Source of the DNA: a virus
Taxonomy: Duplodnaviria > Heunggongvirae > Uroviricota > Caudoviricetes
Direction: 5' to 3' (one strand)
DNA: 5,471 bases
Virus record (IMG/VR): IMGVR_UViG_2713896904_000005
This document shows positions 2,944 through 5,471 of this stretch, piece by piece. The translations under genes and the position numbers were made by a program. The notes beneath the pieces were generated by a model that saw nothing but the letters and a program-made list of their open reading frames with translations, did no database searches and had not been told where the DNA came from. Position 1 is the first letter of the stretch; every line of letters begins with the position of its first letter.

Positions 2944-3282
2944 CTATTTCCCTGAATTTACGACGAAACTGTTCGAGCGGGCTGAAGCACTCATGCTCAT
3001 AGCCTTCACGGAGGTAGATAACCCGTTGTGTTTCCGGCTCCCAACGAATGACTCTGACGGGCACTCCGTAGTGATCTTTGAACCAGCGGTTAACTTGTCG
3101 CAAAGGACTGTCTCCTTCTGCCGGTTGAAATCACCCACAGCCCACTCTGCAAAGCTGTGGGTTACAATTTCCCTGTCACCTGGTACATTCACTGCATAGC
3201 AATACTCCACCTTCGCTTTTCCACCCGGTACAGGAAGCGCAATCAGTTGCGAGCGACGGTAGTGTGTTGTTAAACTGTTCAT
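2944..3282 (-). CDS. Hypothetical protein (112 aa), no recognisable domain
   Basis: ORF between the CII-like and O-like genes. ATG 3282..3280 overlaps the upstream stop (ATGA) and is preceded by GGAGA (rc of 3292..3296). Position and coupling argue for a real gene. Confidence 0.55.
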
Positions 3283-3842
3283 GCGTTAGTTTCTCCACAG
3301 TCACGACACGCCACGGCGCCCGGAGCTGCACACTCGCGGGCGTCATTACTTTCTGAAATGCAAAAGATTTTGTAGACCAGTGCTGCATGCTCCTGCAGCT
3401 TCGAAATTGAGAGATACAGCTCGTCGTTAATTGCTGTCTTCTCATGCGGTTCCACTACACCGTCTTCGATTGCTGAACGAATCTGTTTTGAATAACTGCC
3501 GATCTGTTCAATGACTTCCAGCAGACGCTGGTTAATATCGGCGTTGTCCACATCCTCGACGTCAGGAAGAGACACAAAGACGCCATTTGCAGACTGCGCC
3601 ACAGCGTCAGCAATGAAGTGAGTTCCACCAGCACGTTGCAAAATCATTGCCCATCCCAGCGGGAAAATCTGATCGCCATCGGCACGAAGGCGGTTAAATA
3701 ATGCGTTCTCTGTTACATCCAGCCAGTCAGCTGCTTCAGCGTAACCACCCGGCAACTTTGCGATAGTTTTTCTGACAGCTTTCACGTACCACTCAGGCTG
3801 TTTTTCTACTTTCCAGTGATGCTTACCCACGGTTAGCCTCAT
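3279..3842 (-). CDS. CII-like phage regulatory protein (187 aa; CP76/YdaT-like position after cro)
   Basis: Second gene of the rightward operon, 31 nt after the cro-like stop. N-terminal half has an HTH-like stretch ([42 protein letters not shown]) loosely resembling lambda CII. C-terminus carries four Cys (C-x9-C-x7-C-x2-C). No clear SD before ATG 3842, and no in-frame alternative start upstream before a stop at 3900..3902. Confidence 0.6.
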
Positions 3843-3873
3843 CGTTCTGTGGTTAAAAATTGAAAGTGTTCTG

Positions 3874-4074
3874 CTAATCTTTCGGATAGATATCCGGTCT
3901 TAAGTCAGATTTCGTAATTGCACCTGATGTGTATTGCTCAAGTTTTTTAGCCAGCACAAAACTGGCTTTTTTATAGCCATTGAAAACCAGCCGTAAGTAG
4001 CCAGGTGTTGAGCCAACTTTTCCGGCCAACTCGCCCTGCTGTTCTTTGGTTAAAGAGTCCCAATACGCTTTCAT
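3874..4074 (-). CDS. Cro-like helix-turn-helix repressor (66 aa)
   Basis: MKAYWDSLTKEQQGELAGKVGSTPGYLRLVFNGYKKASFVLAKKLEQYTSGAITKSDLRPDIYPKD is a small Cro/YdaS-type HTH protein with the characteristic C-terminal ...LRPDI motif. Divergent from the CI-like gene. ATG 4074 has GGAGG (rc of 4085..4089) upstream; the track's 4098 start has no SD and falls in the operator region. Confidence 0.8.
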   Translation of the reverse strand: MKAYWDSLTKEQQGELAGKVGSTPGYLRLVFNGYKKASFVLAKKLEQYTSGAITKSDLRPDIYPKD

Positions 4075-4164
4075 ACAATATGTACCTCCGGTGTACATAT
4101 TACATGATTAAAATGAACCTTCAAGATACTTGTACCTTAACGGTACAAGGGTTTTAATTTCGTT
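4075..4164. promoter_or_regulatory. Divergent promoter/operator region (OR-like) between cro-like and CI-like genes
   Basis: Two 19-bp inverted-repeat sites: 4080..4098 ATGTACC-tccgg-TGTACAT (6/7 half-site symmetry) and 4130..4148 TTGTACC-ttaac-GGTACAA (perfect). Candidate cro promoter on the minus strand: -35 TTGAAG (rc of 4119..4124), 16-bp spacer, -10 TAATAT (rc of 4097..4102). Candidate cI promoter -10 TTTAAT at 4153..4158, just before ATG 4165. Confidence 0.6.
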
Positions 4165-4839
4165 ATGAAAACAATCCATGACATCCGGCGGTCTAACGCC
4201 AGAAAACTGAGAGATGGTGTTGGCGGGAATTCTTCCTTTGCCACTATGATTGATCGCGAGCCAACCCAGACCAGCAGGTTTATGGGAGATGGTGCTACTA
4301 AAAATATCGGTGACAGCATGGCACGACACATCGAAAAATGTTTCGACCTGCCTGTAGGATGGCTCGATCAAGAACACCAGACAACGAACATCACAAAAAA
4401 ACCTGATGTTTCAATCACTAATAAACAAATCACATTAGTCCCTGTCATATCATGGGTACAGGCCGGAGCATGGAAAGAAGTTGGATATTCTGAGGTTGAT
4501 TTGAGCACAGCAGAAACGTATCCCTGCCCTGTACCCTGTGGGGAAATGACTTATATCTTGCGGGTGATAGGTGATTCAATGATTGATGAGTACCGCCCGG
4601 GAGACATGATTTTTGTCGATCCTGAAGTACCTGCCTGCCACGGTGACGACGTTATTGCATTGATGCACGATACAGGTGAAACCACCTTCAAAAGGTTGAT
4701 AGAAGATGGGACACAGCGTTATCTCAAAGCGTTAAACCCAAACTGGCCTGAGCCTTACATTAAGATCAACGGTAATTGCTCTATAATTGGTACTGTGATT
4801 TTCTCAGGAAAACCAAGAAGATACAAAATCAAAGCCTAA
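4165..4839 (+). CDS. CI-like phage repressor with N-terminal HTH and C-terminal LexA-type S24 autopeptidase domain
   Basis: 224 aa. HTH region (FATMIDREPTQTSRF...MARHIEKCFDLPVGWLD). Probable cleavage site VQAG-AW (compare lambda CI VQAG-MF). Ser nucleophile in LRVIGDSM and Lys in TTFKRL, matching the LexA/CI Ser-Lys dyad context. Divergent from the cro-like gene. Confidence 0.9.
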   Translation: MKTIHDIRRSNARKLRDGVGGNSSFATMIDREPTQTSRFMGDGATKNIGDSMARHIEKCFDLPVGWLDQEHQTTNITKKPDVSITNKQITLVPVISWVQAGAWKEVGYSEVDLSTAETYPCPVPCGEMTYILRVIGDSMIDEYRPGDMIFVDPEVPACHGDDVIALMHDTGETTFKRLIEDGTQRYLKALNPNWPEPYIKINGNCSIIGTVIFSGKPRRYKIKA

Positions 4840-4851
4840 TCAATGTTTATG

Positions 4852-4874
4852 AACCTGCTTCGGCAGGTTTTTTT
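4852..4874 (+). terminator. Rho-independent terminator downstream of the CI-like gene
   Basis: Stem AACCTGC (4852..4858), UUCG tetraloop (4859..4862), stem GCAGGTT (4863..4869), then a T run through 4874, 13 nt after the CI stop. Confidence 0.75.
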
Positions 4875-4878
4875 ATAC

Positions 4879-4912
4879 TTGACAATGTACCCTTTAGATA
4901 CATAATGTACCC
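4879..4912 (+). promoter_or_regulatory. Strong sigma70-type promoter (pL-like) with embedded operator
   Basis: -35 TTGACA (4879..4884), 16-bp spacer, -10 CATAAT (4901..4906). The spacer and -10 contain the 19-bp site ATGTACC-cttta-GATACAT (4885..4903), same architecture as the two OR sites. A further ATGTACC half-site lies at 4905..4911. Confidence 0.65.
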
Positions 4913-4990
4913 AAGAGAAACAACAAACAGGCAGGACGCCCACGAAGTAGCCGCCTGGGGCATATGAAGTCCAGGATGATTCGTTAGCAA

Positions 4991-5028
4991 CAAAAAAGCG
5001 CCCTACAGGACGCTTAGCTCTTTAACAA
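4991..5028. promoter_or_regulatory. Leader hairpin plus boxA-like element (GCTCTTTAACAA)
   Basis: Inverted repeat AAGCGCCC-taca-GGACGCTT (4996..5015). On the minus-strand RNA it forms an 8-bp stem with one G-U pair followed by U6, so it is terminator-like for leftward transcription. On the plus-strand RNA the stem has a C-A mismatch. Immediately 3' on the plus strand, GCTCTTTAACAA (5017..5028) matches the rrn/nut boxA consensus as I recall it. Confidence 0.4.
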
Positions 5029-5073
5029 TCTGGTCCCCATCAACAAGTAACTGATAACTTGAGGAGGTGTGAA

Positions 5074-5280
5074 ATGCACAAAACAGAACCAAAAATCGTC
5101 GCACCCGGATACACAAATGAGGAAATTTACGAGTGGATGGCAAAGAAGCTGGCAGCTATAAACCAGCTTCGTGAAGTGCTGTCTTATCGACAGGAAACAA
5201 TAGACTCCTTAAAAAAACTGGATCAGGAAATCACGGTTTTATCACAGGATGTTACTTTAGATATTGTGCAGACAAATTAG
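5074..5280 (+). CDS. Small hypothetical protein (68 aa), first ORF downstream of the pL-like promoter
   Basis: ATG 5074 preceded by a strong SD GAGGAGG (5061..5067) at 6-nt spacing. Product MHKTEPKIVAPGYTNEEIYEWMAKKLAAINQLREVLSYRQETIDSLKKLDQEITVLSQDVTLDIVQTN is predicted helical/amphipathic with no family I recognise. The track's 5059 start is a TTG that falls on the SD itself. The antisense strand is full of stops. Confidence 0.6.
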   Translation: MHKTEPKIVAPGYTNEEIYEWMAKKLAAINQLREVLSYRQETIDSLKKLDQEITVLSQDVTLDIVQTN

Positions 5281-5471
5281 GATCCCATTCATTTTCGTCA
5301 AAATCATCAAAGTGATGAATTTGTGATCTCCAGTCTCGATAATCTAAAAATTTCTGGGCGGTTACGCTTATTTTATCAAGCGTGAGTTCATCCTGAATTG
5401 AAAGAAGAAGTTCATCTGAACCGCCCCGGGTTTCCTGGAGAGTGTTTTATCTGTGAACTCAGGCTGCCAGA

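Follow-up and report, generated by a model that had tools for sequence, protein, structure and literature searches.

What is a boxA of the ribosomal RNA (rRNA) type doing in the early-left leader of a lambdoid prophage in which no N-like protein is in sight? The question is raised by virus record IMGVR_UViG_2713896904_000005 of IMG/VR (Caudoviricetes), of which a stretch of 5,471 nucleotides (nt), here called the window, was analyzed. Judged by its sequence and gene order, the window spans the immunity region and early genes of an SfIV/SfV/e14-type lambdoid prophage. Shortly after its predicted early-left promoter (PL) it carries an inverted repeat, and 1 nt 3' of the repeat begins a boxA motif. 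The original prediction for this locus, made from the letters alone, described a leader hairpin followed by a boxA-like element in the order found in rRNA (rrn) operons. It left open whether the element is an antitermination site that works with host factors only, a barrier against convergent transcription into the immunity region, or both.

The answer that we favor, with moderate confidence, is that two signals on opposite strands are fused. The terminator of a convergent cargo gene would be joined to a NusB/NusE site of the rrn type, which works without N and shields PL transcripts from Rho. Terminator, boxA and a short 3' extension together make up a 42-base unit, which we regard, from sequence comparison, as a two-strand module bordering a slot for cargo ('moron') genes within the early-left operon of a lambdoid prophage without N (Table 1). 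The anatomy of this unit, its strand asymmetry, the position-specific conservation of its boxA and its link with convergent cargo are observed directly and are described below. The terminator half is ordinary. The boxA half would extend N-independent antitermination by boxA of the rrn type, which is known for rRNA operons and for CRISPR arrays.

An rrn-type boxA in the predicted PL transcript

The 12-mer GCTCTTTAACAA at 5017-5028 occurs in the window once as an exact match, on the plus strand, and in none of 200 dinucleotide-preserving shuffles. The original prediction had called it nearly identical to the boxA core; the match is in fact exact, and it equals the boxA of the Escherichia coli K-12 rrnH leader at 12 of 12 positions. 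A hairpin lies 5' of the rrnH boxA as well. The functional boxA consensus, GYTCTTTAANA, is known from mutational and comparative data (Baniulyte et al., PMC5725501). In the 39.8-kb genome of Shigella phage SfIV, which is 98.3% identical to the window over 4840-5416, this boxA is the single match to that consensus. When up to two mismatches are allowed, one more boxA-like site appears in the window, with 0.49 expected by chance. That second site (ACTCTTTAACCA, minus strand, 4047-4058, inside the cro-like gene) has two mismatches and breaks the consensus at position 1, and it was set aside as a chance occurrence. The predicted PL start lies near 4913, from which transcription would run rightwards through boxA. 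Because a PL-like promoter is predicted at 4879-4906, boxA falls at about +104 of the predicted transcript, promoter-proximal and on the sense strand.

Relatives of the module were gathered in three ways: a hairpin-anchored scan that left boxA free, a boxA-anchored scan that left the hairpin free, and a scan of one genome per species. The 11 bases 3' of every such hairpin were scored against GCTCTTTAACA. The scores are bimodal, with 60 distinct module variants at 10-11 of 11 and 49 unrelated terminators that have the same hairpin at 3-7. The match to GCTCTTTAACA is perfect in 46 of the 60 variants and has one change in 14. Twelve of these 14 differ at position 10 only (C to A or G), which is the degenerate N of GYTCTTTAANA. 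The consensus is fitted by 58 of the 60, and the two exceptions (L076 and L288) are singletons changed at another position. Immediately 5' of boxA stands A in 24 variants, C in 26 and T in 9; neither this base nor the hairpin loop is constrained. Conservation continues past boxA into UCUGG(AU). The orientation of boxA relative to the repressor gene and the leader is identical in all 36 representatives with an upstream open reading frame (ORF) called, and among the module variants listed the conserved leaders are on the same strand as boxA. Kept among related prophages as the original prediction would expect, boxA appears to be under position-specific purifying selection in the PL-sense orientation. 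It is quite probably a genuine Nus-factor site, and the UCUGG extension may be part of that site.

The module is present in 24 loci from about 14 genera of Enterobacterales, and in 762 of 5,426 complete E. coli genomes (about 14%); no annotated feature lies under the 12 hits listed. It occurs beside many immunity types and different leaders, and all eight upstream ORFs tested encode helix-turn-helix (HTH) repressors with or without an S24 domain. A unit that travels in this manner might be a cargo terminator that mosaic phages conserve as a joint for cassette exchange, its likeness to boxA having no Nus function. The breaks in homology do fall within a few bases of it, as at a mosaic junction. 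Similarity to the window breaks off at 5033 in PhiR29-type phages, at 5031 in Klebsiella phage Kp4882-1 (whose common stretch with the window is bases 4990-5031 only) and at 4985 in SfV. The unit also flanks at least six cargo families, and AAAAGCGCCC-NNNN-GGACGCTT hairpins are frequently met as generic terminators. A joint, however, predicts even conservation, whereas the loop, the base before boxA and position 10 vary here while the ten constrained positions are kept. Nothing boxA-like follows the hairpin in the 49 unrelated terminators that share it, and the 17-22 conserved nt coincide, in the PL sense, with rrn and T7 sequences. We therefore regard a joint without Nus function as improbable.

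The coincidence with rrn and T7 is close. The rrnH leader of E. coli K-12 reads ...GCGAC-loop-GUCGC AACU GCUCUUUAACAA UUUAUC, and the rrnH 16S-23S spacer reads ...UUUU GCUCUUUAAAAA UCUGGAUCAAG, with GCTCTTTAAAAATCTGGATCAAG as the context of the spacer boxA. UCUGGAU 3' of boxA is the context of the rrnH spacer, and the variant in the window consists of the rrn leader core plus the rrn spacer extension. Prophage variants whose position 10 is A, such as L218 and L220, match the rrnH spacer element without a difference over 22 nt, TTTGCTCTTTAAAAATCTGGAT. The early leader of phage T7 carries CGCTCTTTAACAATCTGG downstream of its promoters for host RNA polymerase and reads CGCTCTTTAACAATCTGGTAAAT (PMC11863960, Table 1). 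It shares 17 nt, GCTCTTTAACAATCTGG, with both the prophage module and the rrn spacer, UCUGG included.

This oriented identity also bears on the possibility that the conserved bases act in the minus-strand RNA, as a 3' untranslated region (UTR) shared by the cargo genes (GGAUAUCCAGAUUGUUAAAGAGC plus terminator) and serving as a small RNA (sRNA) or as a chaperone or stability element. The conserved stretch does lie between the cargo stop codon and the terminator, where 3'-UTR sRNAs arise, and conservation reaches TCTGGATATCC beyond boxA. A function on that strand would nevertheless leave to coincidence the match to rrn and T7 in the PL orientation, and likewise the fact that the element is exactly rrn boxA plus spacer in reverse complement. 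No Rfam family is matched on either strand: in a scan of the whole window at E<=10, nothing was reported at 4900-5100, and the matches elsewhere were noise. Known prophage sRNAs (the anti-sRNAs AgvB/AsxR; Pas) map to the PR' moron region or elsewhere, and ECs1072, the family of the cargo gene in the window, and its neighbors are absent from the supplements of Hfq crosslinking and immunoprecipitation (CLIP) studies. A role confined to the minus-strand RNA is very unlikely.

The nut sites of the lambda/P22/21 type also lie just downstream of PL and also have a boxA of the consensus CUUUA type. They differ in that boxA is followed by boxB, N protein acts on them and a nutR is present, whereas here the hairpin precedes boxA and neither an N-like protein nor a counterpart of nutR was found. 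The hairpin-then-boxA order that the original prediction had read as rrn-like is borne out. In the lineage of the window, relatives diverge about 5 nt 3' of boxA, and no conserved or boxB-type hairpin is found there. Its statement that the first downstream ORF is not N-like stands too: no arginine-rich motif of N occurs in that ORF (5074-5280), and no N-family match was found among ten early-region proteins scanned from the near-identical SfIV, a set that left out cro, O, the KilA-N protein, DUF968 and Q. Only 30 nt separate the cro-like from the cII-like gene, too few for a nutR. The right operon is made up of tightly packed, co-oriented genes without boxA, and this layout fits a need for boxA that is confined to the left operon. 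The Nus-dependent phages of the mEp021 type (PMC11893012) were considered and assigned to a different group, since they have the N-like Gp17 and boxA-boxB nut sites.

A probable minus-strand terminator and its convergent cargo

The inverted repeat reads differently on its two strands. The minus-strand RNA forms a continuous 8-bp stem (five G-C pairs, one G-U) with a 4-nt loop, followed by U6, at -11.5 to -11.6 kcal/mol. The plus-strand RNA contains a C.A mismatch, reaches -7.5 kcal/mol and has no U-run. Among terminator-like sites in 3800-5471, the repeat ranks first. The asymmetry is general, as the minus strand folds more stably in 45 of 46 distinct hairpin variants (mean -12.2 vs -7.6 kcal/mol). 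Rare stem substitutions pair in the minus sense only, as G-U against C.A on the plus strand; GGACAC, for example, gives a second G-U pair. The loop is free to vary, and UUCG, UACG and UGCG loops are closed by C-G in the minus sense, as in Kp4882-1. An A-run of 4-9 is found in the module variants listed.

Among 39 representative loci, 36 have enough downstream flank, and each of these carries a minus-strand ORF whose stop codon lies 5-240 nt beyond boxA. The ORF is 71-255 amino acids (aa) long, and 98-255 aa in 34 of the 36; the remaining three loci end too soon to judge. In the same loci a plus-strand ORF ends about 120-400 nt upstream. The convergent ORFs belong to at least six unrelated cargo families, and for the function of the cargo genes neither Pfam nor PADLOC gave a significant family. 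In the window the convergent stop is 236 nt from boxA, a 68-aa ORF lies between them and the gene is cut by an insertion sequence (IS). Because of this convergent layout, together with the greater stability on the minus strand, the minus-sense pairing of the stem and the variation of the loop, the repeat is very probably the intrinsic terminator that ends the convergent cargo gene.

The original prediction had taken the repeat for a better terminator when it is read on the opposite strand, and the energies, the U6 tract and the 45 variants agree. Its term 'leader hairpin' holds for the presence of a hairpin and fails for its role, which is primarily that of a terminator for convergent cargo and not that of a boxB-like leader element. 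Reading the hairpin as an attenuator on the plus strand was rejected on the weak stem with its C.A mismatch, the missing U-run and the position of boxA 3' of the hairpin instead of 5'. Between antitermination site, convergent barrier and both, 'both' is now favored by the 36 of 36 judgeable loci with convergent ORFs and by the apparent selection on boxA in the PL sense.

Whether boxA belongs to the leader or to the cargo was asked in a leader-anchored sample of 146 distinct downstream contexts, in which boxA was sought within 400 nt. A consensus boxA is present in 51 of the 146, and the largest nearby ORF is convergent in all 51, by an ORF call that is a crude heuristic and in contexts that are not independent. 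No boxA was found in those contexts of this sample in which a co-oriented gene directly follows the leader (ymfJ in e14, orf33 in SfV and about 49 others). The e14 element of K-12 and SfV share the PL leader with the window, have no module, and have these co-oriented genes first after the leader. In locus L085 a co-oriented 77-aa ORF comes first, then the module, with a convergent gene directly after it. In these comparisons boxA goes with the convergent cargo and not with the leader.

A proposed anti-Rho role and its precedents

In a lysogen, PL would be repressed and the cargo gene would be transcribed toward the immunity region. Its transcript would end at the hairpin and U6 (minus strand, 5015 down to 4992), and for that reason would be kept from running antisense into PL and cI. 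On induction, RNA polymerase starting at PL (about 4913) would make the leader and pass the repeat, which with its C.A mismatch and without a U-run should be a poor terminator in the plus direction. The PL transcript would then yield GCUCUUUAACAA-UCUGG, to be bound by NusB/NusE (S10) as in rRNA operons. NusA, NusG and probably SuhB would join to give a Rho-resistant polymerase without N protein or boxB. This polymerase could cross several hundred untranslated bases antisense to the cargo, a stretch of about 550 nt in the intact E. coli locus, before it arrives at the genes of the early-left operon (yfdP...yfdT, xis, int). We infer from sequence that Nus factors bind, that the antisense stretch is sensitive to Rho and that the cargo transcript terminates here in vivo. 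We lean, if only a little, toward a specific anti-Rho role of boxA across the cargo gene.

The rRNA operons supply the model. NusB:NusE binds boxA itself and NusA the adjoining spacer; rrn boxA-spacer with a few upstream bases suppresses Rho-dependent terminators, needs no N or boxB, and is effective against terminators of that kind only (PMC2800207; PMC2724277). The prophage module has in common with rrn antiterminators the boxA core, a hairpin immediately 5' and the spacer-like UCUGGAU; it would probably likewise require neither N nor boxB, and anti-Rho action on untranslated RNA would be expected of it. It differs in lying in a phage early-left leader instead of an rrn operon and in having no boxC-like GU-rich element. 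The upstream hairpin is boxB in rrn, whereas here it appears to be selected as a terminator of the opposite strand, and the role of Nus factors is here a predicted one. As a functional precedent, the boxA of CRISPR arrays, which shields the untranslated arrays from Rho (Stringer et al. 2020, PMC7665894), is the closest. It likewise works with host factors only, outside rRNA, near the start of a long untranslated transcript. In the prophages, by contrast, the untranslated stretch is the antisense of a convergent phage gene, and boxA is fused to the terminator of that gene. The T7 early leader, with its 17-nt identity, belongs, as here, to a phage without N. T7 differs in being virulent and in having no adjoining convergent terminator, and we know of no established role for its boxA.

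We found no earlier description of the module. A literature search with the module and leader sequences, and for boxA together with SfV, SfIV, e14 or KplE1, returned none, and its sole text match was the T7 leader. Neither the SfIV paper nor the GenBank features of SfV and SfIV describe a boxA or the module. In the passages covered, the supplementary boxA list of Baniulyte et al. names suhB and prsA along with a handful of further E. coli sites, and none of these is evidently the present locus.

Antitermination by boxA and Nus factors alone was long deemed specific to rRNA and has recently been extended to suhB and CRISPR arrays. If the proposed role is correct, N-less temperate phages that borrow the rRNA antitermination signal of their host would form a third natural class. 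They would use the signal exactly where the early transcript goes untranslated, antisense through inserted cargo. This would explain how convergent genes expressed in the lysogen can sit inside the PL operon with no loss of xis/int expression, and it would provide a sequence rule for spotting cargo slots.

Several observations weigh against an anti-Rho module of this kind. The distinct variants of the module share ancestry and have spread by recombination, and because of this their counts (58 of 60 included) are not counts of independent events. Mosaic junctions coincide with the module, so that use as a recombination joint could account for some of its conservation. One lineage (L088/L105) retains the hairpin and has a boxA decayed to CACTTTTGAAC. 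In two others (L398 and L422) convergent cargo follows the leader directly without the module, and because of these boxA seems helpful and not indispensable. A C/G-skew scan of the antisense cargo region found one window of 78 nt that resembles a Rho utilization (rut) site, C-rich and G-poor with C/G 2.9, which is at most suggestive. The conserved leader RNA upstream of the module might antiterminate on its own. Finally, boxA can promote Rho termination through translational repression, as at suhB (PMC5725501), and in the window a strong Shine-Dalgarno (SD) sequence lies 32 nt downstream of boxA.

The last point invites a reading in which boxA is a Nus site that acts negatively, as in the suhB leader. 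It would block translation of the 5074-5280 ORF and expose the transcript to Rho, so that early-left expression (xis/int) is damped or timed. The suhB boxA is likewise outside rRNA, lies in a 5' leader and fits GYTCTTTAANA; its translational repression with Rho termination is established, and it is reported to act more than 50 nt from a gene start (PMC5725501). In about 9 of some 40 module contexts boxA is followed, at a distance of 20-45 nt, by the SD of a small co-oriented ORF, and the 32-nt gap in the window loosely resembles the suhB arrangement of a boxA near the SD of a co-oriented gene. At suhB, however, boxA is 6 nt from the SD, whereas most prophage modules have no co-oriented ORF downstream; in those contexts (cargo families B-E) a convergent stop lies within 5-40 nt. 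The boxA is missing exactly where a co-oriented gene directly follows the leader. The sequence with its 3' extension matches the antiterminating rrn spacer and not suhB (GTTCTTTAACA). A suhB-like negative role is accordingly doubtful.

The leader RNA and the surrounding immunity region

Between the PL start and the module lies a structured RNA ('leader X' in Table 1), which is previously undescribed. Its consensus was obtained with RNAalifold from an alignment of 26 variants, in which 94.5% of cells are paired, against 24-47% in slid controls. The covariation score is 0.262 vs 0.079 after shuffling, and none of 500 shuffles reached 0.262. Compensatory changes are abundant in the third helix (CCUGG/CCAGG, CCCGG/CCGGG, CCCCA/UGGGG, CCCGU/ACGGG, CCUUG/CCAAG). 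The RNA begins near the PL start and is found behind many promoters and operators in many enterobacterial genera, with or without the boxA module. A covariance model built on it finds e14 and SfV at E about 1e-24 to 1e-27. Rfam holds no family that matches the RNA.

Could this RNA be the antiterminator by itself, like put of phage HK022, with boxA as an accessory or vestige? HK022 is also a lambdoid phage without N that has a cis-acting leader element just downstream of PL. Its put is a two-stem RNA of about 70 nt that binds the beta' zinc-binding domain without Nus factors, and both module and leader RNA are unlike it. No likeness to put was found, pairwise alignment being trivial and the HK022 PL region being read against the published put numbering, and the covariance model gave no match on the HK022 PL/PR region. 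Further put-like RNAs were reportedly listed by King et al. in 2011. The covarying structure, the start near PL in N-less phages of many immunity types and the boxA-free state of e14, SfV and many others speak for antitermination by the leader alone, as do plus-strand terminator-like sites downstream of the leader in SfV (annotated) and in L422. Kp4882-1, in contrast, has the boxA module without the leader RNA, and the position-specific conservation of boxA would be left unexplained. We hold a leader that acts alone to be very improbable as an account of this locus.

The sites just mentioned are an annotated plus-strand terminator after orf33 in SfV and, in the viral contig L422, a hairpin that resembles a plus-strand terminator, ends in a T6 run (TCACCTGCGAGGTATGCAGTGATTTTTT) and stands some 80-120 nt downstream of the leader RNA. 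The L422 hairpin falls within the 3' end of a convergent cargo gene without a boxA module. Because such sites follow the leader, the sequences imply that the PL transcripts of these N-less phages would need antitermination. For the same reason, in an operon without N, a put-like role of the leader RNA is an attractive hypothesis, and the RNA is a candidate cis-acting antiterminator or another kind of leader element. Combining it with the module would give N-less lambdoid prophages of Enterobacterales a two-part early-left system that needs no phage protein: a leader RNA at 4930-4983 as a put-like processive antiterminator, and a boxA of the rrn-spacer type that would recruit the rRNA antitermination machinery of the host against Rho wherever PL has to run antisense through convergent cargo, the unit being a portable cargo adaptor. 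We offer this larger scheme tentatively and think it rather unlikely as a whole. If it were true, cargo expressed in the lysogen could be inserted head-on into the operon without breaking the operon.

A second conserved leader element, ...GCGCAGCAGGUUUAAACGUUCCGC-stem-GCGAUAAGGGCA, is seen in L004 (3450-3500), L019, L053, L250, L329, L337 and others, and is absent from the window. It stands by itself or adjoins the 3' side of the first leader RNA, and in many cases the SD of a co-oriented gene comes right after it. In L327 (1590-2160), an Stx2c-converting phage, the same repressor and PL are followed, up to the first early-left gene, by a different non-coding leader of about 570 nt; both the leader RNA and the boxA module are missing there.

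Table 1. Features of the window; positions count from its first letter.
Feature	Position	Strand	Remarks
Genes for KilA-N protein, RusA, LexA-like regulator, PerC/YfdN, O-like replication protein, ymfM, cII-like and cro-like proteins, in this order		minus	
cII-like gene ymfL	3279-3842	minus	
cro-like gene ymfT	3874-4098	minus	
cI-type repressor gene (ymfK/cohE-like)	4165..4839	+	HTH + S24 peptidase; same direction as PL
Intrinsic terminator of the repressor gene	4851..4877	+	8-bp stem, UUCG loop, T7 run
PL-type early-left promoter	4879..4906	+	TTGACA, 16-nt spacer, CATAAT; 11/12 promoter match
Operator-like palindrome ATGTACCCTTTAGATACAT	4885-4903		Spans the PL spacer
Structured leader RNA ('leader X')	4930..4983	+	Adjoins the module, not a fixed part of it
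Leader helix 1, GGC/GCC	4930-32 with 4938-40		
Leader helix 2, CGAA/UUCG	4943-46 with 4980-83		
Leader helix 3, CCUGG/CCAGG	4954-58 with 4971-75		
42-base unit (terminator + boxA + extension)	4992-5033	both	
U6 tract of the minus-strand terminator	4992..4997	minus	A6 on the plus strand
Stem-loop of the probable intrinsic terminator of the convergent cargo gene	4996..5015	minus	AAGCGCCC TACA GGACGCTT on the plus strand
rrn-type boxA GCUCUUUAACAA, putative NusB/NusE site	5017..5028	+	Exact match
Conserved 3' extension UCUGG	5029..5033	+	UCUGGAU in most relatives; shared with rrn 16S-23S spacer and T7 early leader
Putative NusB/NusE-site RNA, PL sense			UUAGCUCUUUAACAAUCUGG
68-aa ORF	5074..5280	+	Strong SD GAGGAGG; co-oriented with PL; phrog_1744
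Convergent cargo gene, 3' part (ECs1072-family phage-associated protein)	5252..5416	minus	Last ~55 codons; stop at 5252; phrog_5286, of unknown function
End of IS3-family element (IS1203/IS629-like), ~55 bases	5417..5471		Interrupts the ECs1072-family cargo gene

The region around the module is that of a known prophage type. E. coli prophages that adjoin thrW-proA are, in many genomes, 99-99.7% identical to the window over 4840-5416. The repressor matches Pfam Peptidase_S24 (E=1.5e-26) and bears the annotation repressor/cI in SfIV and ymfK in E. coli. Its terminator folds at -11.6 kcal/mol (z=-4.3) and has an annotated terminator as counterpart in SfV. The promoter at 4879-4906 holds the position of PL in lambda. 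TGTAC-N7-GTACA palindromes are found at 4081-4097 and 4129-4149, in the cI/cro intergenic region, and a related one crosses the PL spacer; together these are probably the operators of this immunity type.

In intact relatives the order is cI, PL, the 68-aa ORF, the convergent ECs1072-family gene and then yfdR, yfdT, xis and int, co-oriented early-left genes. The 68-aa ORF has two Arg and no Pfam hit, and its sole PHROG match, phrog_1744, is of unknown function. It overlaps the ECs1072-family gene tail to tail by 29 nt and the two are always found together; they may form a two-gene cassette of unassigned function. In relatives, other cargo genes of the ECs1072 family also have a small co-oriented ORF as partner, whose strong SD lies 20-45 nt downstream of boxA. 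The coordinates of the cargo gene in Table 1 were carried over from the intact E. coli locus L003 (6413-6847). The match to intact loci ends at 5416, and the last 60 nt of the window are those of thousands of IS3-family copies.

Further from the module, an Rfam match to mir-5880 at 2505-2640 was judged spurious. The bases there, inside the O-like replication gene, form tandem, partly palindromic repeats of the TTTTGACGGGTCAGA and TTTTGATGCGTCAGA type that have the look of origin iterons.

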